DNA from: an uncultured Limnohabitans sp.
GTDB taxonomy: Bacteria; Pseudomonadota; Gammaproteobacteria; Burkholderiales; Burkholderiaceae_C
NCBI GenBank assembly: GCA_964544175.1
Contig: CAZJAL010000009.1
Location: forward strand, 9,818 to 73,817
Direction: 5' to 3'
Length of the DNA stretch: 64,000 nt
Position numbers and translations under genes: made by a program. Numbering within the stretch: position 1 is the stretch's first letter; each line of letters begins with the position of its first letter. The notes under the pieces were generated by a model that did not search any database, was not told the origin of the DNA, and worked only from the letters and a program-made list of their open reading frames with translations. Below are positions 54,421 through 64,000 of this stretch, piece after piece.

Positions 54421-55113
54421 ATGAAACATTTGAATTTACAAGCCGTCATGATTGACCTAGACGGCACCATGGTCGACACCATCGGTGACTTTGAGGTTGC
54501 CTTAAACCGTGCCCTTTCAGACTTACAGGTTCCTACAGCAAACCGCACGCTCATTGAGCGCAGTATTGGCAAAGGATCTGAACATCTCATTCGCACGGTA
54601 CTCAAACACCAACTGGCACTGCCTGAAGTAGCTGGCAATGCGCTCGAGGTTGAGCAATTGTTTACGCCAGTATGGGAGCGCTACGAACACCATTACCTCA
54701 GCATCAATGGCGAGTTCTCCAATGTATTTCCTGGCGTCATGGAAGGCTTAGAACAAATCAAAGCATTGGGCTTGCCCATGGCCTGCCTCACAAACAAACC
54801 CGTGTCATTTACTTTGCCTCTCATCAGAGACAAAGGACTGGCGCCTTATTTTTCAAAAGTCTTTGGTGGCGACAGTTTTGAGCGCAAAAAACCAGACCCA
54901 TTGCCTTTGCTCAAAACGTGTGAGGCCTTGCAGAGCTTGCCCGCGCAAACCTTGATGGTGGGAGATTCCAGTAACGACGCGCAAGCGGCTGATGCGGCAG
55001 GCTGCCCAGTGGTGCTCATGACCTATGGTTACAACCATGGTGAGCCCATTCAAAATACGCCTGCCTTGGCTTGGTTAGATTCATTGAAGCAGCTGCAAAT
55101 CAGTAAGTCTTGA
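54421..55113 (+). CDS. gph: phosphoglycolate phosphatase (HAD superfamily)
   Basis: 230 aa with VMIDLDGTMVDT, LTNKP and GDSSNDAQAA. Confidence 0.85.
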   Translation: MKHLNLQAVMIDLDGTMVDTIGDFEVALNRALSDLQVPTANRTLIERSIGKGSEHLIRTVLKHQLALPEVAGNALEVEQLFTPVWERYEHHYLSINGEFSNVFPGVMEGLEQIKALGLPMACLTNKPVSFTLPLIRDKGLAPYFSKVFGGDSFERKKPDPLPLLKTCEALQSLPAQTLMVGDSSNDAQAADAAGCPVVLMTYGYNHGEPIQNTPALAWLDSLKQLQISKS

Positions 55114-55132
55114 AAGAGCTTGCTCAAAGAAA

Positions 55133-55162
55133 AACCCCTTGAGCATTGCTGCTGAAGGGGTT
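55133..55162. terminator. intrinsic terminator hairpin AACCCCTT...AAGGGGTT
   Basis: 8-bp stem with an inner AGCA/TGCT extension, read directly. The plus strand follows with a T-rich run after gph. The minus strand reads GGGGTTTTTCTTT, so it would also terminate the tRNA remnant. Confidence 0.6.
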
Positions 55163-55170
55163 CTTAATTT

Positions 55171-55219
55171 TGGCTCCTCGACCTGGGCTCGAACCAGGGA
55201 CCTACGGATTAACAGAAAA
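55171..55219 (-). repeat. 49-nt direct repeat copy 1 = 3' half of tRNA-Asn(GUU) (anticodon loop to CCA), not an intact tRNA
   Basis: The reverse complement reads TTTT-CTGTTAA-TCCGT-AGGTC-CCTGG-TTCGAGC-CCAGG-TCGAGGA-G-CCA. The D arm and the 5' strands of the acceptor and anticodon stems are absent on the 3' side of this plus-strand interval. Confidence 0.85.
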
Positions 55220-55273
55220 CTAGTCTCGTCAAAATACCATATAAATCAATAACTTATATGTATTTTTAATAAA

Positions 55274-55293
55274 CGTGTAATATTTCGTGTAAT
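55274..55293. repeat. direct repeats CGTGTAAT-N4-CGTGTAAT (12-nt period), arm-type recombinase site candidate
   Basis: Read directly, 55 nt inside the island from repeat copy 1. A similarly spaced pair lies inside the next element at 63681-63699. Confidence 0.4.
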
Positions 55294-55440
55294 TAAGTCA
55301 AAAGTTGCGTTTCGCAACTTTTCCGGAACTTTCATAGATTTTGCACTCAACAGCGTCACTCGACTGGCAAAAGTTAAGGGTTGTTTTGGTCGACAAGTGT
55401 CATTTCAAACGACAGTTGTAGGGTGTGTATAAATTTATCA

Positions 55441-55461
55441 ATCGTCTAGTAACAGGACGAT
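55441..55461. repeat. hairpin motif ATCGTCTAGTAACAGGACGAT (copy 1 of 2)
   Basis: Imperfect palindrome, stem ATCGTC/GACGAT. A near-identical copy in the same orientation lies at 63164-63184, on the other side of the efflux genes. Confidence 0.6.
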
Positions 55462-55642
55462 GATTTGTGTCTGTTGCTTCGTGAAGATATGAGATCTAAA
55501 GAACAGCCATTTGTGACTAATTTCACGAGTGGGTAAAGTTTTCAAGAAATCTTTAGCACCAGAGAAAATAATCTAAGGGCAATTTTAATGTGATGAGTAA
55601 GCTGAACACATAAGAATTTTTGTTCGGCTATACTTTCGACAA

Positions 55643-56011
55643 ATGAAGAAGCTTCTCGCAATAATCTTATTAGTACTGATGCCTTTGCAGTTCAGCATGG
55701 CAGCAGTATCTAGTTATTGCGAGCACGAAGCCAACTCAAGTGAAAGTCATCCTGGACATCATTCCCATCAACATGAGAATGAGAACAACGAAACTGTTGC
55801 TTCTGACAGCGACGCCAAAAAGACTTCATCAAGTTCAGGTGTGCATCATGATTGTGCATCTTGTCACATGGGATGTTCAGCTTTTGTTATCAACAACATA
55901 AGTTCGATCATCTCCAAATCCGATCAAACTATTCCTTTCGGCTATCTTAAAAACTCATCCAGAGTTAACTTCGAAAGACCTGAACGCCCTCAGTGGCTGT
56001 TACTCGCTTAA
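55643..56011 (+). CDS. small secreted His/Cys-rich protein, CzcI-like by position and composition
   Basis: 122 aa with signal peptide MKKLLAIILLVLMPLQFSMA, then SSYCEHEANSSESHPGHHSHQHENEN and HHDCASCHMGC. It lies directly upstream of the efflux genes. The family assignment is from memory only. Confidence 0.5.
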   Translation: MKKLLAIILLVLMPLQFSMAAVSSYCEHEANSSESHPGHHSHQHENENNETVASDSDAKKTSSSSGVHHDCASCHMGCSAFVINNISSIISKSDQTIPFGYLKNSSRVNFERPERPQWLLLA

Positions 56012-56032
56012 TCAGCGAGTCTCAGGTTTTTT
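56002..56032 (+). terminator. hairpin ACTCGCT-TAATC-AGCGAGT followed by T-run, possible attenuator between the first two island genes
   Basis: 7-bp stem spanning the stop codon of 55643-56011, with TTTTTT beginning 6 nt after the stem. Alternative pairings are available downstream (see findings). Confidence 0.35.
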
Positions 56033-56160
56033 CTACATACCTTAAATTCCCCTGAGAGCTTTTCTGCACAGCTTAGGCACAGCCGTGTAGTTTTGCTTAC
56101 AACCTTCGGGTTTGTTGCTCGCTGATTTCCGTTGGATTTTTTTACCATTGGAGATTAGTT

Positions 56161-57423
56161 ATGAATTGTGTTTTTAAAAAAATGCGGGTTTTTCAGGCAA
56201 TTCCCTATGCGATTGTTTTGAATTGCCTCATTGCCGGCGCTCAAGCGCAAACCACTGAACCACCGAGGATTGTCTCAACTTTGGCAGAAGTGTTCAATGT
56301 TGCTTGGCTTAGGCAACCCGAAGCTCGAGCATCAAGTTTGCGCAGAGAAGCATCGGTTGCTCAAATCAATGCAGCCAATATGTTGACTTCGGAATCACCA
56401 TCGTTCGAAATAAGTCAGCGTAGCGATAGGATGAACGGCAATCAAGGCAGTCGAGAGATTGAAATTGGATTTGCCGTGCCCTTGTGGCTTCCCGGTCAGC
56501 GAAGCGCTAGTCAACAATTAGCGGAGGTTGAAAGCAGTTTTGTAGACCACAAAATCCATGCGACCAAACTTCGCCTTGCCTCAACTGTACGAGAAGCTTG
56601 GTGGAATTGGCATCGTGCGACATTGGATCGCCAGGTCGCTCTTGATCATTTAAGCAATGCTCAAAAAATCTTTAGTGATGTTACTAAACGAAAAGCAGCA
56701 GGCGATCTTGCCAAGTCTGATCAATACCAGGCAGAAGGTGCTGTTGCAGCTGCCGAGGTTCTTGTTGCACAAGCTCAAGCTGAAGTGACTGCAGCAGCTG
56801 CAGCTTTGGCGGCACTTTCTGGAATCAGTGTGCAAGTCAAATCCACTGTCAATTTAGTTTCAGAAACGCTACCAAGTTCTACTCAGTCAAAAATACATCC
56901 AACCGTTGCGGAGTTGGAGGGTCGACTTGAGGTTTTGAAAAAAACTGCTGATTTAGTCAGCACGCAAAAAAGAGCGGCACCTGAACTCACTATCGCAACT
57001 TCTCGAGAGCGAGGAGCTTTCGGTGAACGGTACGGACAAACAGTCATGTTTGGTGTCCGGATTCCATTAGGGGATGGTGCGCGCTTTGATGCTCGTTTTT
57101 CTTCTGCAAGGGCAGAAGTTGTAGAAGCGGAATCACAGCTCAATATTGAGAGAGAAAAGCTCAAATCAGAACAGTCAGTAGCAGAATTTCGTGTTCAAGC
57201 AGCGCGGACTCAACTCAGGGCAATTGAAAGACGCTCATATTTAGCAAAAGAGTCTCGTCAATTTTTCGACAAGTCTTTTAGGCTCGGTGAAACTGATTTG
57301 CCAACAAGGTTGCGAGTGGAGTCAGAGGCTTTAGAGGCTGAGCGACAACTTGCCAATAGTCAAATCAATCTTGCAGCTGCCATTTCATCTTGGCGTCAGT
57401 CGTTAGGCTTACTGCCTGAATGA
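56161..57423 (+). CDS. TolC-family outer membrane efflux protein (CzcC/CusC-like)
   Basis: 420 aa with a signal peptide and two OEP repeats of long Ala/Gln/Glu-rich coiled helices. Confidence 0.85.
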   Translation: MNCVFKKMRVFQAIPYAIVLNCLIAGAQAQTTEPPRIVSTLAEVFNVAWLRQPEARASSLRREASVAQINAANMLTSESPSFEISQRSDRMNGNQGSREIEIGFAVPLWLPGQRSASQQLAEVESSFVDHKIHATKLRLASTVREAWWNWHRATLDRQVALDHLSNAQKIFSDVTKRKAAGDLAKSDQYQAEGAVAAAEVLVAQAQAEVTAAAAALAALSGISVQVKSTVNLVSETLPSSTQSKIHPTVAELEGRLEVLKKTADLVSTQKRAAPELTIATSRERGAFGERYGQTVMFGVRIPLGDGARFDARFSSARAEVVEAESQLNIEREKLKSEQSVAEFRVQAARTQLRAIERRSYLAKESRQFFDKSFRLGETDLPTRLRVESEALEAERQLANSQINLAAAISSWRQSLGLLPE

Positions 57424-57453
57424 TGCAAATATTTAAATACTTTAGGAAAAATA

Positions 57454-57990
57454 ATGAAGTTCATTAAATCAATTTTGGTTTCGCTTCTATCTGTGATGCT
57501 TACATTGTTGAGCATTTCAAGCGTTGCAGGACCTGGACATGATCATGGTGATTCAGCACCGCAAACCCTGGGTTCCTCATCTCCTAGATTCGTCGCTGAA
57601 TCTGAAGATTTGGAGTTAGTAGGAATCGTCAATGGAAAAAAAATTACGCTTTACTTAGATCGATTTCAAAGTAATACCCCAGTTAAGGATGCAGTTATCG
57701 AAATAGATATTGCAAGCGTCAAATACAAAGCCAATCAAATTAGTGACGGTGAATTTGAAATCACCCTCAAAGATTCTTTGATGCCGGGTGTCATAGCAAT
57801 CACTGCAACAGTCCAAGTCGGCGATTTGACTGATCTTTTAGTCGGGGAACTCGATTTGCATACTGATGAAGAAGCTTCAAAAAGTGAGCGTTCGTGGAAG
57901 TCACTAATCCAATGGATCGTCATTGGATTACTCGCATTGATTGCAATCGGACTATTTGTTCGTTCACGTCAAAAAATTAGCCTTGCATAA
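57454..57990 (+). CDS. hypothetical periplasmic protein with N-terminal GPGHDHGD motif and C-terminal TM anchor
   Basis: 178 aa: signal peptide, His motif, beta-rich body (LELVGIVNGKKITLYLDRF...), then WIVIGLLALIAIGLFV near the C-terminus. RBS AGGAAAA upstream. No family recognised. Confidence 0.6.
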   Translation: MKFIKSILVSLLSVMLTLLSISSVAGPGHDHGDSAPQTLGSSSPRFVAESEDLELVGIVNGKKITLYLDRFQSNTPVKDAVIEIDIASVKYKANQISDGEFEITLKDSLMPGVIAITATVQVGDLTDLLVGELDLHTDEEASKSERSWKSLIQWIVIGLLALIAIGLFVRSRQKISLA

Positions 57991-58001
57991 GGAATCACAA
58001 A

Positions 58002-59132
58002 ATGAAATTTAAAATTATTTTTGCAAAATTTAAAGTGCTTGCGCTCGTATCAGCTTTGGGTATGGCAAGTTACGTTTCGTTGGCAACAGCTGGAGAGGGT
58101 CATGATCACGGTGGATCTGCAGTAGCTCCAAACGCTAATGGTCCGCAACGCATGGCAGACGGAAGCGTTTTTTTGCCTAAGCCAGCACAACGTCAATTAA
58201 ACGTTCGAACAACAGTCGTAGACAGTTCTGACCTGCCACGATCCTATGAGCTAAACGGACGTGTCTTGATGGATCCAAATGCAGGTGGTATGGTTCAACC
58301 AATGAATGCGGGTAGAGTTGAACCCGGTCCTAATGGATTACCAAGTCTAGGTCAAGTTGTTAAAAAAGGTCAGGTTTTGGCTTACGTTGTGCCAGCTGTT
58401 TCTTCAGTAGACCAATCTAGCCAACTTGCACAATTTGCAGAAATTCGAGCAGCAAAATCACTTGCCGAAAAAAAGCTCGCTCGGTTAGTCGAGCTGACCG
58501 ACACAGTGCCTCGCAAAGAAATTGAGGCTGCTGAAAGTGAATTGGTTAGTTTGACTGAAAGATTGAATGCAATTAACGGAGGCTTACGAGGCAAAGAAGC
58601 TCTTGTTGCACCTGTTAGTGGTGTGATAGCTTCAGCAAATGTTGTTACTGGTCAAGTCGTTGATGCGCGCGAATTAATTTTTGAAGTCACTGACCCCAAA
58701 TACATAAGACTTGAGGCATTGACTTTCGATAGCTCACTAGCATCAAACATAGGTGGCGCTACTCTTGCGCTTGGTGAAAAGCGTATTCCTCTCCAGTTTA
58801 TTGGAGCTGCAAGAAGTTTGAGAGAGCTGGCTTTGCCCTTAAACTTTTTATCTAAAAGTCCTGAATTATTGGATCTAGCGATTGGTCAATCAGTCAAGAT
58901 TTACGTCCAATCAAAGCAAAAGATTCAGGGTATTGCAGTGCCGCAATCAGCTTTGATGAAAAACGCTGCAAACCAAAGTGTTGTGTGGATCAAAACTTCA
59001 GCTGAGAAATTTGAGCCTAGAACTGTCACCTTTGAGCCTTTAGATGGCACAAGAGTCACAGTTACTTCAGGTATCAAGTCCAGTGATCGTGTGGCAACGC
59101 AAGGCGCCACCCTTATCAACCAAGTTCGCTGA
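58002..59132 (+). CDS. RND efflux periplasmic adaptor (membrane fusion protein, CzcB/CusB-like)
   Basis: 376 aa: signal/anchor, GEGHDHGG motif, then barrel-sandwich, coiled-coil hairpin and beta-barrel pattern (GRVLMDPNAGGMV..., VSGVIASANVVTGQVV). Confidence 0.85.
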   Translation: MKFKIIFAKFKVLALVSALGMASYVSLATAGEGHDHGGSAVAPNANGPQRMADGSVFLPKPAQRQLNVRTTVVDSSDLPRSYELNGRVLMDPNAGGMVQPMNAGRVEPGPNGLPSLGQVVKKGQVLAYVVPAVSSVDQSSQLAQFAEIRAAKSLAEKKLARLVELTDTVPRKEIEAAESELVSLTERLNAINGGLRGKEALVAPVSGVIASANVVTGQVVDARELIFEVTDPKYIRLEALTFDSSLASNIGGATLALGEKRIPLQFIGAARSLRELALPLNFLSKSPELLDLAIGQSVKIYVQSKQKIQGIAVPQSALMKNAANQSVVWIKTSAEKFEPRTVTFEPLDGTRVTVTSGIKSSDRVATQGATLINQVR

Positions 59133-59144
59133 AGGAGCCTCTAT

Positions 59145-62100
59145 ATGTTTAAGTGGCTACTTGATAACAGCTTAGCTAACCGATTGCTGGTAATTATTGC
59201 TGGTGTCGTGTTAATGGCTTATGGCGCGTTCACACTAACCAAAACACCAGTTGATGTTTTTCCCGATCTCAATAAGCCAACCGTAACTATCATGACTGAA
59301 GCAGGAGGTATGGCTGCTGAAGAAGTTGAGCAGTTAATTACTTTTCCGCTTGAAACTACCATGAATGGCTTACCCGGTGTTGAGTCAATTAGATCAACTT
59401 CGTCTGCAGGACTTTCTTTTTTGTACGTGACCTTCAGCTGGGAAACTGAGATTTTTCGAGCTCGTCAGTTAGTTTCAGAGCGACTGTCCTCAATGGAGGA
59501 GGGCTTGGCTGCTGGTGTTCTTCCTCGAATGGGTCCCGTCAGTTCAATTATGGGTGAAATCATGCAAATTGCTATTCCAGTTGATTCTGAAAAGATCAGC
59601 GCAATGGCTGTTCGTGAATATGCAGATTGGGTTCTTCGCCCCCGATTGCTTTCGGTACCAGGTGTGGCTCAAGTCATACCAATTGGCGGAGAAGTACGTC
59701 AGTTTCAAGTTCAGCCTGATACTGCTCGTATGGCTACCCTCGGCATAACGCACGAGCAGATTGAGAGCGCATTGAAAGGTTTTTCTGCCAATACTTCAGG
59801 AGGATTTCTTGAATTAAATGGTCGTGAATATTTAATTCGAAACATTGGACGAACTTCTTTATTGGATGATCTCAAGAATTTAGCAATCACTGCAAAGAAT
59901 GGTCAGCCTATTCTTATGCGACAAATTGCTGAAGTTACATTTGCAGCTGCTCTCAAGAGAGGTGATGCAGGATTCGAAGGCAAGCCTGCAGTTATCTTGG
60001 GAATTCAGAAGCAGCCAACTGCAGACACAATAGCATTAACCAAATCAATTGAGGATGCTTTAGTTGGACTTAAAGCTTCTCTACCTGTAGGTATGGAGGA
60101 GCCTAGAGTTACTTTCCGTCAGGCTAGTTTCATTGAAGCTTCTATTACAACTTTACAAGGTAAGTTAATTGGTGCATCTATTTTCGTTGCACTTATTTTG
60201 TTTTTCTTTTTGGGAACGTTAAGACCTACAGTCATTGCTCTTACTGCTATTCCTGTTTCAATCTTTATTACTGCATTGGTCTTTAAATATTTTGGACTGT
60301 CTATCAACACGATGACACTTGGTGGTCTTGCAATTGCAATCGGTGGATTGGTAGACGATGCTGTAGTGGGTGTAGAAAATGTTTTAAGAAGATTGAAGGC
60401 TGACAGATCAAGCTCTAATCACACTCTTAAAAGTTCTCTTGAGATTGTGGCGACTGCAACGATGGAAGTGCGTTCCGCGATACTGTATGCAACAGTAATT
60501 ATCGTTCTTGTTTTTATTCCACTATTTGCACTACCTGGACTCGAAGGTAAATTATTTGTGCCCTTGGGTATTGCATTCATTGTTTCAACGCTGGCTTCTT
60601 TGATAGTTTCAGTCACAGTGACACCGGTGCTTAGCTTCTACTTGCTTCCGCAAATGAAGAATCTTGATCACGGTGACACCAAAGTGTTGGCTTGGTTGAA
60701 GGTGCGTTACAAGTCGAGTTTGCAGAGTGTTTTAGATCGACCCAAGGTGGCATTAACGTCAGCACTTACTGCAGTTCTATTTTCAGCAATCGCAGTACCG
60801 TTTTTTCCTACGACGTTTTTGCCTCCTTTTAATGAGGGTACTTTGCTGATTGGTCTGCGATTAAACCCAGGCGTAACGTTGACAGAGTCATCCGCTTTAG
60901 CGCGTCAAGCTGAGGTGCTTGTAAAACAAGTTCCGGAGGTAACTCACGTCGGTCGACGAAGCGGGCGAGCTGAGCTTGATGAGCATGCAGAAGGCGTTCA
61001 CGTTAGCGAATTAGATGTAGGACTGAAGCCAACTTCGGAACTTACACGAAGCATGGATGAAATCAAGTCAGACATTCGTTCACGTTTGGTTAATTTGCCT
61101 GCTGCATTAGAAATTGGTCAACCGATTTCTCATCGAATAGATCACATGCTTTCAGGCGTTCGTTCCCAAATTGCAATCAAAATTTTTGGGGAGGATCTGG
61201 ATACTTTAAGAGGTCAGGCTGACGAGTTGAGGTCAAAGCTTGGTGCCATACCCGGAATTGCTGATTTACAAATTGAAAAGCAAGTACTAGCACCACAGAT
61301 CAAAGTACGAGTTGACTATGCAGCAGCTGCACAATACGGTGTACCTGTTCCACAGGTTCTAAATGCACTACAAGCGATGGTTGAGGGTGAGAAAGTCACT
61401 CAAATAGTAGAAGGTAGTCGACGATTTGCGTTGGTCGTTAAGTTGCCGGAGTCTGCAAGAACTATTGAAGGGCTTGGGCAGATTTTGATAGAGACGCCAA
61501 ATGGTCGAATTCCATTATCAAAGATTGCAAGCATTGAGGACGGTGACGGACCCAATCAGATTAGTCGCGATGATGGCAAAAGACGAATCGTTTTGTCTGC
61601 AAACGCATCTGGACGTGCGTTATCAGAAATTGTGGCTGATATCCGTAGTGTGGTTAATGAAACAAAACTTCCTGAAGGTTATTTCATAACCTTGGGTGGA
61701 CAGTTTCAAGCACAAGAAGAGGCTTCTCGATTGGTCGGGCTTCTTTCTATCGTTTCATTGACATTGATGTTCGTAGTACTTTATAGCCGTTATAAGTCGT
61801 CAGTCTTATCAGCGTTGATCATGGTTAACATTCCACTTGCACTAGTAGGCGCAGTGATTGGACTTTGGATCTCTGGACAGCCCTTATCGGTTGCAGCGTT
61901 AGTGGGTTTCATTACGCTTGCTGGTATTTCTGTGCGAAATGGAATCTTGAAAGTTAGTCACTACATTAACTTAATGCGTTTTGAAGGCGAAGGTTTCGAT
62001 CAAAAAATGATTCTTCGCGGCTCACTCGAACGTTTAAGTCCTGTACTGATGACTGCCTTGGTGACAGCTTTCGCGCTCGCACCGCTATTGTTTGAGGCTG

Positions 62101-62264
62101 AACAACCTGGAACTGAAGTTTTGCACCCTGTTGCTGTTGTGATCTTTTCAGGGCTAATTAGCTCAACTTTGTTGGATACATTTCTTACGCCACTCATGTT
62201 CTGGTTGTATGGGCGTAAGTCTGTAGAGGCTTTGTTGCAAGATAAAGATGCAGAAGCTTTTTAA
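59145..62264 (+). CDS. heavy-metal-efflux RND pump, CusA/CzcA family
   Basis: 1039 aa with 12-TM RND topology and TM4 motif AIAIGGLVDDAVVGVEN. It is collinear over long stretches with my recollection of E. coli CusA. Confidence 0.95.
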   Translation: MFKWLLDNSLANRLLVIIAGVVLMAYGAFTLTKTPVDVFPDLNKPTVTIMTEAGGMAAEEVEQLITFPLETTMNGLPGVESIRSTSSAGLSFLYVTFSWETEIFRARQLVSERLSSMEEGLAAGVLPRMGPVSSIMGEIMQIAIPVDSEKISAMAVREYADWVLRPRLLSVPGVAQVIPIGGEVRQFQVQPDTARMATLGITHEQIESALKGFSANTSGGFLELNGREYLIRNIGRTSLLDDLKNLAITAKNGQPILMRQIAEVTFAAALKRGDAGFEGKPAVILGIQKQPTADTIALTKSIEDALVGLKASLPVGMEEPRVTFRQASFIEASITTLQGKLIGASIFVALILFFFLGTLRPTVIALTAIPVSIFITALVFKYFGLSINTMTLGGLAIAIGGLVDDAVVGVENVLRRLKADRSSSNHTLKSSLEIVATATMEVRSAILYATVIIVLVFIPLFALPGLEGKLFVPLGIAFIVSTLASLIVSVTVTPVLSFYLLPQMKNLDHGDTKVLAWLKVRYKSSLQSVLDRPKVALTSALTAVLFSAIAVPFFPTTFLPPFNEGTLLIGLRLNPGVTLTESSALARQAEVLVKQVPEVTHVGRRSGRAELDEHAEGVHVSELDVGLKPTSELTRSMDEIKSDIRSRLVNLPAALEIGQPISHRIDHMLSGVRSQIAIKIFGEDLDTLRGQADELRSKLGAIPGIADLQIEKQVLAPQIKVRVDYAAAAQYGVPVPQVLNALQAMVEGEKVTQIVEGSRRFALVVKLPESARTIEGLGQILIETPNGRIPLSKIASIEDGDGPNQISRDDGKRRIVLSANASGRALSEIVADIRSVVNETKLPEGYFITLGGQFQAQEEASRLVGLLSIVSLTLMFVVLYSRYKSSVLSALIMVNIPLALVGAVIGLWISGQPLSVAALVGFITLAGISVRNGILKVSHYINLMRFEGEGFDQKMILRGSLERLSPVLMTALVTAFALAPLLFEAEQPGTEVLHPVAVVIFSGLISSTLLDTFLTPLMFWLYGRKSVEALLQDKDAEAF

Positions 62265-62294
62265 TTGTTTTTTATTTTTTAAAAGGAAAATCTC

Positions 62295-62672
62295 ATGAAA
62301 CTGAAAACGTTAATTATTTGTTCAACTTTGCTTTTTACAAATATCGCATTCGCCGGTCCGGATCATGGTGAACATAAGCCTATGAAAGGTGGAGTTTTGG
62401 CAACTGTCAAAGACGTTGATTACGAGTTAGTTGCAAATGCCACATCAATTAGTCTCTATGTTCGTGATCATGGTAAGTCAGTTGACTTGTCAAAGGCGAG
62501 TGCAAAAATTACTTTACTCACCGGCAGTGATAAACAAGAGGTTGATCTTCAGCCAACGGCTGAAAAGTTGGAATCAAAAGGAAACTTTAAGGTTAGTGCG
62601 GGTACAAAGGTAGTTGCGATTATTAATTTGCAAGGCAAATCTGCAACCACTGCTCGTTTTGTATTGAAATAA
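62295..62672 (+). CDS. hypothetical periplasmic protein with N-terminal GPDHGEH motif
   Basis: 125 aa with signal peptide ...NIAFA. The beta-rich body (YELVANATSISLYVRDHGK...) resembles the body of the 57454-57990 product. RBS AAGGAAAA upstream. Confidence 0.6.
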   Translation: MKLKTLIICSTLLFTNIAFAGPDHGEHKPMKGGVLATVKDVDYELVANATSISLYVRDHGKSVDLSKASAKITLLTGSDKQEVDLQPTAEKLESKGNFKVSAGTKVVAIINLQGKSATTARFVLK

Positions 62673-62685
62673 TTAAAGGTCTTAT

Positions 62686-63060
62686 ATGAAAATTACTACA
62701 TTAGTCTGCGCCTTAGGCGCGTTGTTTTTGACTGCATGTTCTTCTGTTGGAGGGCTTAAGTTATCTAGTACCGAAAATGTTGAGGCAAAAGTTACTCGGC
62801 AGTTGTTTGCTACCGATCAAGTTGAAATTAAATTCAATGACAAGGTATACAGGGGCGACTGGAATGCAGTGTCTGCTTCTGATGAGCAAAAATCTAAAGT
62901 TTCATTTGAGCATCGAAAGCATCTCCATTCAGTTAAGACTTTACTGAAAGCTGCTGATGGTTCTGAGATGAATTGCCTATGGATTGGGCATTCTTATTCT
63001 GCTGACGGAAAATGCTCTGTAGGTGGACGAGAATTTTCAATATCAGTTAAAAGAGGTTAA
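62686..63060 (+). CDS. hypothetical lipoprotein
   Basis: 124 aa with lipobox LFLTAC|SS. No family recognised. It is the last gene of the island operon. Confidence 0.55.
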   Translation: MKITTLVCALGALFLTACSSVGGLKLSSTENVEAKVTRQLFATDQVEIKFNDKVYRGDWNAVSASDEQKSKVSFEHRKHLHSVKTLLKAADGSEMNCLWIGHSYSADGKCSVGGREFSISVKRG

Positions 63061-63079
63061 ATTTTTGATGTGATTGAGC

Positions 63080-63106
63080 GGAAGGTGAGAATAATTCTCT
63101 CCTTCC
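63080..63106 (+). terminator. hairpin GGAAGGTGAGA-ATAAT-TCTCTCCTTCC after the island operon
   Basis: 11-bp stem with one mismatch, read directly 20 nt after the stop at 63060. The T-tract is weak. Confidence 0.45.
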
Positions 63107-63163
63107 AGCTTTATGGTTAAGTAGAGGAAAATTTCAGATTCTAGTTATCAAAACTAACAACTG

Positions 63164-63184
63164 ATCGTCCAGTAACGGGACGAT
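63164..63184. repeat. hairpin motif ATCGTCCAGTAACGGGACGAT (copy 2 of 2)
   Basis: 7-bp stem ATCGTCC/GGACGAT, in the same orientation as 55441-55461 and differing at two positions. A second hairpin ACAAAGGT...ACCTTTGT follows at 63190-63213. Confidence 0.6.
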
Positions 63185-63554
63185 AGAGAACAAAGGTACT
63201 AAAGCACCTTTGTTCAATTCGGAACATTTACTGTGCAAACCCATCCCTGAGCTTGTTGGCAGCGGCTTCTATCTGTGTGTCTAACTCTCTTTCAGTTCAT
63301 CCTGTTTTAGCTAGTCAATTTCTTGATGTTTGGATCAAACGCTAGCGGATTGAGTTTGGCATTCCCCCAAATCAGTAGACACTTTTCAAAGCGAAGATTG
63401 ACGCTGCTGCCCAAGCTCTTGGCGCTTAGTTGAGCAAGATATTTGTAGTAACTTGCTTGATTAAAAATTGCATCTGCTGTGCAATACACGTGTAATATCA
63501 ACGAGCTAAAAGTTGCTCCCTGGCTCGTTGGGAGACAGAAAACTGTCTGGAAAA

Positions 63555-63586
63555 GAAAAAAGCACTGAATAAATCAGTGCTTTTTA
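63555..63586. terminator. bidirectional intrinsic terminator AGCACTGA-ATAAA-TCAGTGCT flanked by A- and T-runs
   Basis: Perfect 8-bp stem read directly. It lies immediately 3' (on the minus strand) of the second tRNA-Asn fragment. Confidence 0.6.
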
Positions 63587-63589
63587 GAG

Positions 63590-63638
63590 TGGCTCCTCGA
63601 CCTGGGCTCGAACCAGGGACCTACGGATTAACAGAAAA
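63590..63638 (-). repeat. 49-nt direct repeat copy 2 = 3' half of tRNA-Asn(GUU), again without the tRNA 5' half
   Basis: Identical to 55171-55219 by base-by-base reading. It is followed by TATTTGTTATTTAAATTG, which cannot form the D arm or the anticodon-stem 5' strand. Confidence 0.85.
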
Positions 63639-63680
63639 TATTTGTTATTTAAATTGTTGATTTAAAACAACTATTTTTTG

Positions 63681-63699
63681 GTGCGTATTATAGTGCGTA
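63681..63699. repeat. direct repeats GTGCGTA-N5-GTGCGTA (12-nt period), with a related TGCGTAAT at 63740-63747
   Basis: Read directly, 43 nt inside the second AT-rich element. The arrangement is analogous to 55274-55293. Confidence 0.4.
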
Positions 63700-63869
63700 G
63701 TTAAGATGCAGTTTTAAACAATGCAATAGAGTTAATTACTGCGTAATTACAGTTGATGCTTAAATCTTCGTAGGTGAGCGATTGAGTGCTTGGTTTCGGA
63801 TTACATGCCGGTAGGTGGTTGCCGCTGTTGAATAAACTTTGGGGTCTTCAAGGATATTCACGTATTTAA

Positions 63870-64000
63870 ATGCTTGTAATCCAAAAAATCTCTTCTTGGG
63901 CTAAAGCACTCAAATTAGATGTGTTGGCGTTGTGGTTAGCTCTGAAACAACCAAAGATGCCTTTCTGGGCAAAAGTCGTTTGCTTTGTCGCAGTGGCGTA
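63870..64000 (+). CDS. DUF1232/YkvA-like membrane protein (5' part only, runs off right edge)
   Basis: My own translation from ATG 63870 gives MLVIQKISSWAKALKLDVLALWLALKQPKMPFWAKVVCFVAVA. This resembles the YkvA-family N-terminus (conserved ...P..PW.AK......Y). Confidence 0.5.
   Translation, partial: MLVIQKISSWAKALKLDVLALWLALKQPKMPFWAKVVCFVAVA

Follow-up and report, generated by a model that had tools for sequence, protein, structure and literature searches.

A mobile NieA-type metal-efflux module with a putative periplasmic histidine relay in an uncultured Limnohabitans

We propose that a seven-gene cluster of an uncultured Limnohabitans sp. represents a mobile module in which a heavy metal efflux (HME) pump of the resistance-nodulation-division (RND) type, related to NieA, would be served by a relay of periplasmic histidine residues and would export a divalent cation, most likely Zn(II) or Cd(II) and possibly Pb(II). 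We put the probability of this reading at about 0.55. The cluster lies in a stretch of 64,000 nucleotides (the window; NCBI GenBank assembly GCA_964544175.1, contig CAZJAL010000009.1, positions 9,818 to 73,817 of the forward strand), to whose numbering all coordinates refer. Gram-negative bacteria rid the periplasm of toxic metals chiefly by means of HME-RND pumps, and the delivery of divalent cations to such pumps is much less clear than that of Cu(I) in the Cus system.

Gene set and pump of the module

The seven open reading frames (ORFs), all on the plus strand, were confirmed where the original prediction had placed them. ORF1 (55643–56011, 122 aa) encodes a CzcI-like protein, ORF2 (56161–57423, 420 aa) a CzcC/TolC-like outer membrane factor (OMF; PF02321 OEP, E 4.6e-28), ORF4 (58002–59132, 376 aa) a CzcB-like periplasmic adaptor (TIGR01730, HlyD_3/HlyD_D23) and ORF5 (59145–62264, 1039 aa) the HME-RND pump (TIGR00914). 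ORF3 (57454–57990, 178 aa; 'cep', see below), ORF6 (62295–62672, 125 aa) and the lipoprotein ORF7 (62686–63060, 124 aa) gave no match in scans of the Pfam and NCBIfam libraries; the prediction that the operon holds extra periplasmic components outside curated families is borne out. From ORF1 to ORF7 the intergenic gaps measure 149, 30, 11, 12, 30 and 13 nt, as expected of a single operon with an extended leader between its first two genes.

At least 293 species-level genomes (one genome per GTDB species) encode a relative of ORF3. The locus survey was seeded from ORF3, and the best 80 of these 293 loci were retrieved; the presence of each gene was scored by tblastn with the seven window proteins, a locus being assessable where its contig is long enough. 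The OMF is present at 76/76 assessable loci, the adaptor at 69/69, the pump at 52/52, ORF6 at 50/51 and the CzcI-like ORF1 at 69/72, and on all contigs of sufficient length the order CzcI-like protein, OMF, ORF3, adaptor, pump, ORF6 and the spacing between them are unchanged. ORF7 was found at only 3 of 48 assessable loci. The conserved unit consists of six genes, with the ORF7 lipoprotein as an optional extra; the seven ORFs of the predicted 'seven-gene module' are real, but only six of them make up the unit that is conserved. Limnohabitans sp. MMS-10A-192 (L006) provides the sole assessable locus without a detected ORF6 homologue downstream of the pump. At 16 loci a conserved protein of ∼ 271 aa, which has no NCBIfam match, is encoded on the same strand just upstream of the CzcI-like gene (for example L066:4126–4941, ∼ 2.9 kb upstream of the ORF3 homologue).

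The original prediction had further held that no system of this composition has been described. This does not stand for the first five genes, which correspond to 'nieIC cep nieBA' of Cupriavidus neocaledonicus STM 6070, described in silico by Klonowska et al. (2020; PMC7060636) in the order CzcI-like protein, OMF, 'conserved exported protein', adaptor and pump, cep interrupting the CBA order. The same operon was noted in Cupriavidus sp. AMP6 and in 'Minibacterium massiliensis' (mma_3053), and the authors, pointing to the pump motifs HAEGVH and HRLDH, proposed a new and putatively nickel-exporting HME class, with the labels 'HME5?' and class 6 for NieA (PMC7060636). The window holds a further member of that type, whose first five genes have already been noted in print. 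Our search of the literature on the nie genes, the mma_305x loci and Rubrivivax or CadR-linked RND pumps found no experimental study.

ORF5 scores 786.9 bits against TIGR00914 (HME RND; cut-off 701.45) and 832 bits against PF00873 over residues 9–1021. Among solved structures it is about equally close to CusA (491 bits) and ZneA (459 bits). In a phmmer alignment to 3K07 the methionine triad of CusA (M573/M623/M672) is aligned with G/V/H; H667 of ORF5 is aligned with M672, and H619 adjoins the position of M623. Transmembrane helix IV (TMH IV) reads AIGGLVDDAVVGVEN (aa 398–412, nt 60336–60380) and follows the pattern AIGx3DDAx3VEN, not the A(V/I)Gx3DAAx3IEN of CusA and HME4, and it also differs from the DFGx3DGAx3VEN of HME1/HME2 (CzcA, CnrA, NccA). 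Two histidine motifs lie in the region of the triad: HAEGVH (aa 614–619, nt 60984–61001; as the longer HAEGVHVSE, aa 614–622) and HRIDH (aa 663–667, nt 61131–61145), which has I where the HRLDH of NieA has L. These features are conserved among full-length pump homologues, with HAEGVH in 53/53, an HR(L/I)DH-type motif in 52/53 and AIGx3DDAx3VEN in 49/53. The published row for NieA shows AIG-x3-DDA-x3-VEN, HAEGVH(A/S)SE and HRLDH (suppl. Fig. S7, PMC7060636). Because the motifs of ORF5 match this row and the CusA triad is replaced by G/V/H, the pump is, by its sequence motifs, of the NieA type and not a member of the CusA clade to which it had originally been assigned.

Pump sequences are 83–94% identical (best aligned segment) across loci where ORF3, ORF6 and CzcI are only 30–65% identical; this points either to a much faster evolution of the accessory proteins or to a separate exchange of the pump gene.

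Histidine arms and accessory proteins

ORF3, the adaptor and ORF6 each carry a histidine motif directly after the signal peptide, at the places given in the original prediction: GPGHDHGD in ORF3 (aa 26–33, nt 57529–57552), GEGHDHGG in the adaptor (aa 31–38, nt 58092–58115) and GPDHGEH in ORF6 (aa 21–27), the last within the arm GPDHGEHKPMKGG (nt 62355–62393). GHDH stands just behind the signal peptide of 84/84 ORF3 homologues and of 75/81 cognate adaptors, which nearly always have it as AG[E/P/D]GHDHG. In a wider set of 134 full-length ORF3 representatives (of the best 150), 97 have GHDH and 21 another HxH. The pattern H-x(2-4)-x-GG occurs in 49/50 ORF6 homologues, in most of them as the longer KHDHAHEHKPLHGG, KHDHAHEHKP(L/M)HGG; the Limnohabitans-like branch, which includes the window, has a shortened arm. 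Only H27-K-P-x-x-G-G and a variable His-rich stretch are conserved in ORF6, so that the exact string GPDHGEH is not kept as such. On these counts (84/84, 75/81 and 49/50) we consider the arms to be far more than chance and to be conserved features of their families. We dropped the idea of an ATCUN-type (amino-terminal Cu(II)- and Ni(II)-binding) site, NH2-X-X-His, as cleavage after the invariant Ala makes the histidine residue 4 of the mature protein.

A comparable arm has been characterized biochemically. CopI, a periplasmic protein of Rubrivivax gelatinosus involved in copper tolerance, has the mature N-terminus DAGHDHG..., its cleavage verified by mass spectrometry (PMC4600104); a peptide of this arm forms a 1:1 complex with Cu(II) and has a weaker affinity for Zn(II) (PMC13308877). 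CopI therefore provides an experimental precedent for a short disordered HDH arm at a periplasmic N-terminus acting as a metal-capture device.

Homologues of ORF3 and ORF6 number 466 and 356, respectively, in a protein collection clustered at 90% identity. All are 'hypothetical' and without a Pfam domain, and those with a named source come almost entirely from Burkholderiales or other Betaproteobacteria. A profile search with ORF3 through 1.84 billion representatives returned 1,797 clusters (50% identity) at E ≤ 1e-3. AlphaFold2 modelling from the family alignment (predicted local distance difference test, pLDDT, 80) predicts for ORF3 a signal helix, a disordered arm (aa 21–40), a β-sandwich (aa 45–135, pLDDT mostly 94–96) and a long C-terminal helix (aa 147–177) with a transmembrane segment at nt ∼ 57913–57960. 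Because the hydrophobic stretch WIVIGLLALIAIGLFV is followed by the basic tail RSRQK, the sequence implies a periplasmic body and a cytoplasmic tail for ORF3. The C-terminal hydrophobic anchor is found in 125 of the 134 full-length representatives. For ORF6 the corresponding model (pLDDT 81, predicted TM-score 0.70) comprises a signal peptide, a disordered arm and a soluble β-sandwich with a conserved RDHGK loop.

In Foldseek searches CrdA of Helicobacter pylori (9LL2/9LL4) was the top PDB match of both proteins (E 4.5e-4 to 1.2e-3; target-normalized template modelling (TM) score 0.57–0.59, identity 16–19%), the best values being E 6e-4 with a TM-score of 0.59 for ORF3 and E 4.5e-4 for ORF6. 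FetP/P19 and CopC domains stand lower in the list for ORF3. At the level of sequence no such relationship was detected: Pfam and NCBIfam scans of ORFs 3, 6 and 7 together with 58 aligned members of the ORF3 family and 46 of the ORF6 family gave nothing above noise, with weak hints from the libraries only (Ig-like/YtkA and DUF6488, E > 0.003) and no Pfam CopC match in any of the 58 + 46 members; the two family profiles searched against PDB sequences retrieved neither CrdA nor CopC, only spurious matches to tektin and KtrA. We therefore claim for the ORF3 and ORF6 models a shared immunoglobulin (Ig)-like, metallochaperone-type fold but not membership of the CopC family, their likeness to CrdA being confined to the fold. 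Nor was a chaperone like CusF, with its oligonucleotide/oligosaccharide-binding (OB) fold and Met2-His/Trp Cu(I) site, recognized: ORFs 3, 6 and 7 have no Pfam match to CusF and only 2–3 Met per protein, and the folds predicted for ORF3 and ORF6 are Ig-like sandwiches.

Four divergent proteins of 522–593 aa (P0289, P0354, P0373 and P0376) are fusions of an N-terminal ORF3 module to C-terminal HlyD/CusB adaptor domains. Their layout is signal peptide, GHDHG, sandwich, transmembrane segment, short basic loop, second hydrophobic segment, histidine motif (where present) and adaptor; the second histidine motif is AGPGHDHG in P0373 and P0376, AGPEHNHDG in P0354 and absent from P0289. This layout fixes the topology, which is the one to be expected for ORF3 and the adaptor lying side by side in the inner membrane with both arms in the periplasm. 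The four independent fusion proteins argue for a physical and functional partnership of ORF3 with the adaptor, and we regard them as the strongest evidence here for such an association. Together with the CrdA-like predicted folds and their disordered histidine arms, the fusions lend support to the relay of N-terminal metal-binding arms that the original prediction had put forward.

Genomic setting, substrate and expression

We took a census of neighbouring genes by clustering the flanking ORFs at related loci. A P-type ATPase recurs at 31 loci, a MerR regulator at 16, a histidine kinase of the heavy-metal type at 14, a response regulator at 9, a His-rich protein of the drug/metabolite transporter (DMT) type at 8 and a cation diffusion facilitator (CDF) transporter at 7. 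The ATPases carry CPCALVISTP in 26/27 cases, which we take to be the ZntA/CadA (P1B-2) signature of the Arguello P1B classification, and the single neighbour ATPase that was scanned lies above the cut-off of the IB2_Cd model. Two linked MerR proteins score 161 and 188 bits against the NCBIfam CadR-PbrR equivalog (cut-off 151). The nickel-specific genes nreB, cnrYXH and rcnA are not among the frequent neighbours. Because of the ATPase signature, the CadR-PbrR-type MerR proteins and the CDF neighbours, judged here by sequence, Zn(II)/Cd(II), and possibly Pb(II), are the most likely substrates, and we rank them above the nickel of the 2020 proposal, which draws solely on patterns of motifs. Possible substrates also include Ni, Co and Cu(II), in view of the histidine chemistry of the module and of the DD-type TMH IV that it has in common with the cyanobacterial NrsA and CopA.

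The original prediction had pointed out that the islet lacks a regulator, and indeed no MerR, OmpR-type response regulator or CDF homologue is encoded anywhere in the 64-kb window. As a property of the system this absence does not hold up. On three metagenome contigs (L085, L086 and L089) the module, 99.5% identical by blastn to the window from 55544 to 63120 or 63289, stands directly downstream of a divergent CDF/CadR pair and has an integrase downstream; because these copies adjoin the pair, the lack of a regulator in the window is incidental, a local accident. The CDF/CadR intergenic region in this setting contains the dyad ACCCTGTAGCTGCTACAGTGT, which resembles operators of the CadR/ZntR type. 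Upstream of ORF1 the window remains homologous to the CadR-linked copies for only 99 bp, and a search upstream of ORF1 for the CadR-type operator CTGTAG-N3-CTACAG found none, its three hits with 2 mismatches being at chance level. Scanning for a promoter consensus yielded fewer matches than the shuffled controls did, with no convincing candidate upstream of ORF1, and an Rfam scan of 54900–64000 at E ≤ 1 detected no NiCo/czcD or other riboswitch. The copy in the window is a rearranged, stripped-down one that has lost its usual CadR/CDF neighbours.

The module occupies an 8.4-kb islet bordered by perfect 49-bp direct repeats (55171–55219 on the left, 63590–63638 on the right), each of which represents, on the minus strand, the 3′ half of tRNA-Asn(GTT). 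GC content is 0.40–0.45 inside the repeats and 0.46–0.51 outside. No intact tRNA was detected in the window or in the adjoining 2.6 kb, and the islet has no integrase ORF; of the attributes of a tRNA-associated island, the repeats of a tRNA 3′ end and the shift in composition are there, an integrase and an intact tRNA at one end are not. In a Burkholderiaceae genome (L008) that genome's own module is followed, at a distance of 8.5 kb, by an intact tRNA-Asn whose 45-nt 3′ end is identical, and integrases stand beside the module in L001 and L003 as well as in L085, L086 and L089. The transferable core, on the plus strand, is delimited at 55544–63120 by the 99.5% identity to copies in other contexts. 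Two independent metagenome contigs (L087 and L088) have a locus that is 100% identical, with the same flanks as the window. The pump belongs to a cluster of at least 90% identity with members in Acidovorax, Ottowia, Methylibium, Caldimonas, Piscinibacter and a Reyranella metagenome-assembled genome (MAG), a distribution consistent with recent horizontal spread. A hairpin motif, ATCGTCnAGTAACnGGACGAT, occurs near each end of the islet in the same orientation (55441–55461 and 63164–63184) and nowhere else in the 64 kb (expected number of occurrences 0.01). Candidate roles are those of a terminator, of a recombination site or of an element like the repetitive extragenic palindromic (REP) sequences.

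The ORF1–ORF2 spacer (56012–56160, plus strand) is a structured leader with a minimum free energy of −46.1 kcal/mol (z −3.3). A 9-bp long-range stem, which starts at the first nucleotide after the stop codon of ORF1, encloses variable GC-rich hairpins, and a 3′ hairpin pairs CUCC with the GGAG Shine-Dalgarno sequence of ORF2. Across 15 loci 92.9% of the alignment cells are paired, versus 31–52% when the partners are slid, and six pairs have changed on both sides. The leader has no Rfam family match. It could be a translational-coupling or attenuator element, and by masking the ribosome-binding site of the OMF it might set expression in cis through translational coupling to CzcI.

ORF1 itself falls just short of the cut-off of the CzcI family NF045614 (98.8 bits, cut-off 100; E 3e-28, residues 1–122 aligned to 1–124) and is a small periplasmic protein with the His/Cys motifs SYCEHE, HPGHHSHQHE and HHDCASCHMGC. 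At the other end of the module ORF7 has the lipobox LTAC, the motif HRKHLH and four Cys. Only six homologues were found by word-index search; in the locus survey a homologue accompanies the module only in Ca. Nitricoxidivorans (L003) and in MAGs of Thiobacillus (L044) and Rhodocyclaceae (L057), and the identical protein is present on many metagenome contigs. A second, unrelated lipoprotein family (..LTVYVVR.(R)WGD..) fills the seventh-gene slot of 14 loci (for example L038:7407–7961 and L001:15252–15623), and the position after the ORF6 gene seems to be a variable lipoprotein slot. We regard the JGI label 'LolB' for ORF7 as unsupported.

Proposed mechanism, alternatives and comparison with known systems

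In the model that we favour the module would clear a divalent metal cation out of the periplasm and through the outer membrane by a histidine/carboxylate version of the methionine relay of CusCFBA. ORF6 would be a soluble, diffusible carrier, functionally similar to CusF or CrdA, that scavenges metal by its arm and perhaps by the RDHGK loop. ORF3, a predicted type-I membrane-anchored β-sandwich, would sit beside the adaptor at the surface of the inner membrane, and the flexible N-terminal G-x-GHDHG arms that the two share would receive the ion. From capture by the arms the metal would pass via ORF6 to ORF3 and the adaptor and on to the periplasmic His/Glu cluster of the pump, where HAEGVH and HRIDH take the position of the CusA Met triad. 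Proton antiport via D404, D405 and E411 of TMH IV would then drive expulsion of the ion through the OMF. The CzcI-like ORF1 may have a regulatory role or be a further binder in the periplasm, rich in His and Cys. As a prediction this mechanism is plausible. A more far-reaching idea, which we hold only tentatively and consider well short of probable, is that NieA-type pumps are five- or six-component machines, in which ORF3 is a stoichiometric, membrane-anchored 'co-adaptor' bound to adaptor and pump. Its GHDHG arm, the identical arm of the adaptor and soluble ORF6 would then make up an all-histidine chain leading into the His cluster of the pump, a second periplasmic metal relay that evolved independently of the methionine relay of Cus.

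Several points weigh against the histidine relay. The fold matches to CrdA are modest and the Ig-like sandwich is a common fold, and profile searches gave ORF3 and ORF6 no sequence-level link to CrdA or CopC. Common ancestry of ORF3 and ORF6 is only suggestive, as the profile-profile comparison of the two families (hhalign) gave a probability of 34% and E 4e-4, driven in part by the signal peptide. Frameshifts or errors of gene calling could in principle have produced the fusions, though their occurrence as four divergent sequences speaks against this. Metal transfer, stoichiometry and interaction of the module members are predictions. Finally, the sole published proposal for a NieA-type pump is nickel, from its His motifs (PMC7060636), and the study of the CopI peptide indicates that a His-rich arm favours Cu(II) over Zn(II) (PMC13308877).

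The closest alternative keeps the same architecture but makes the module an exporter of nickel, or of nickel and cobalt, with the H-x4-H and H-x3-H of the pump and the HDH arms as Ni(II) sites. HAEGVH and HR(L/I)DH fit published Ni-binding motif patterns, the source strain of nie is nickel-tolerant, and the cyanobacterial NrsA (Ni) and CopA (Cu) are the nearest characterized pumps whose TMH IV contains a DD motif (PMC7060636). The neighbours, however, are overwhelmingly of the Zn/Cd/Pb type (CadR-PbrR, CPCALVISTP ATPases, CDF), those frequently found do not include nreB, cnrYXH or rcnA, and the published assignment is based on motifs only, so that we regard nickel as unlikely. We give somewhat less credit again to a structural or regulatory role, in which the transmembrane helix of ORF3 docks like AcrZ or YajC on AcrB and the protein assembles, stabilizes or gates the complex, while ORF6 and CzcI are periplasmic sensors or buffers and the arms sense metal and switch the adaptor on. 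The C-terminal anchor kept in 125/134 ORF3 representatives, the tight spacing of the genes and the fusion to the adaptor in some genomes would fit such a role. For CzcI a role in regulating czc expression has been discussed, and adaptors that change conformation in response to metal are documented, namely ZneB and CusB. A purely structural ORF3 nevertheless leaves unexplained why it shares its GHDHG arm with the adaptor and why a second, soluble sandwich with a His arm constantly co-occurs; moreover, the best structural analogue of ORF3 and ORF6 is a metal-binding accessory protein. The structural and metal-carrier roles of ORF3 are not mutually exclusive.

There is little probability, in our view, that the accessory proteins are metal sponges or buffers like CopI, PcoE and ZraP, which reduce free metal without involvement of the pump and are only co-regulated with it. 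The AGHDHG-containing N-terminal peptide of CopI does act as a Cu(II) buffer (PMC13308877), and the arms are disordered in the predicted models. With only three His and one short arm per protein the capacity would nevertheless be low, the gene order is strict, adaptor fusions exist, and a membrane tether on ORF3 makes little sense for a bulk buffer. Least probable is that the copy in the window is a silent, decaying passenger that has lost its regulator, CDF and integrase. Its islet is indeed without regulator and integrase, no CadR-type operator lies upstream of ORF1, and homology to the CadR-linked copies begins only 99 bp before that gene; yet none of the seven ORFs is disrupted, the copies in L087 and L088 match the locus at 100% identity, and the conserved leader with its ribosome-binding hairpin has been kept.

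The accessory set is real and widespread, and the core intuition of the original prediction, a relay of N-terminal His arms, is strengthened. The module type is widespread and highly mobile, with two conserved accessory families (ORF3 and ORF6) for which there is no family model, and the arms, fusions and folds yield a concrete, testable model of a histidine-based periplasmic metal relay. If the model is true, it would provide a second paradigm beside CusF-CusB-CusA, and names and functions for two large 'hypothetical' families from the metal-resistance islands of freshwater and wastewater Burkholderiales.

Among known systems nieIC-cep-nieBA is the nearest, with the first five genes in the same order and the same pump signatures; the sixth gene, the shared GHDHG arms, the cep::adaptor fusions and the fold of cep are unmentioned in its description (PMC7060636). 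The CrdA-CrdB-CzcB-CzcA system of H. pylori likewise encodes a periplasmic β-sandwich accessory with an RND pump. CrdA belongs to the CopC family and binds copper in the periplasm as an accessory of the CrdB-CzcBA pump; it lacks His and has a Met-rich loop (PMC9182242). It differs from ORF3 and ORF6 in having neither a transmembrane anchor nor an N-terminal His arm, and it has no detectable sequence similarity to them. CopI resembles ORF3 and the adaptor in its mature N-terminus, DAGHDHGSAH..., where AGHDHG stands right after the cleavage site in a disordered, metal-binding segment, but it has a cupredoxin fold and a longer arm (5 His), is not encoded in an RND operon and is described as Cu(II)-selective. 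Precedent for a chaperone–adaptor fusion comes from SilB/CusB proteins with a fused CusF-like domain; there the fused domain has the OB-fold of CusF and as a rule stands at the C-terminus, and no transmembrane hairpin lies between the parts. The membrane metallochaperone PmcY was discarded as an analogue, being an unrelated juxtamembrane Asp-site protein of the YiiP operon.

The czcNICBADRS cluster of Cupriavidus metallidurans (HME1; Co/Zn/Cd) has a CzcI-family gene before the OMF gene, the place that the CzcI-like ORF1 takes in the window. Like this type of module it is mobile and linked to CDF and P1B-2 ATPase genes, and it exports divalent cations, as the module is predicted to do. It differs in TMH IV of CzcA (DFGx3DGAx3VEN); to judge by its gene names, czcC is followed directly by czcB, and an ORF6 homologue is not known to lie behind czcA. 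CusCFBA of Escherichia coli (HME4; Cu(I)/Ag(I)) shares with the module a tripartite RND pump of homologous fold and, on the proposed model, a small periplasmic carrier, and the likeness would extend to the path of the metal, which in Cus is handed from the carrier to the flexible N-terminal arm of the adaptor and then to the site in the periplasmic cleft of the pump. In the module of the window the ligands would be His/Asp instead of Met and the likely substrate divalent; its putative carriers are predicted Ig-like sandwiches instead of the CusF OB-fold, and the membrane-anchored ORF3 is an additional component.

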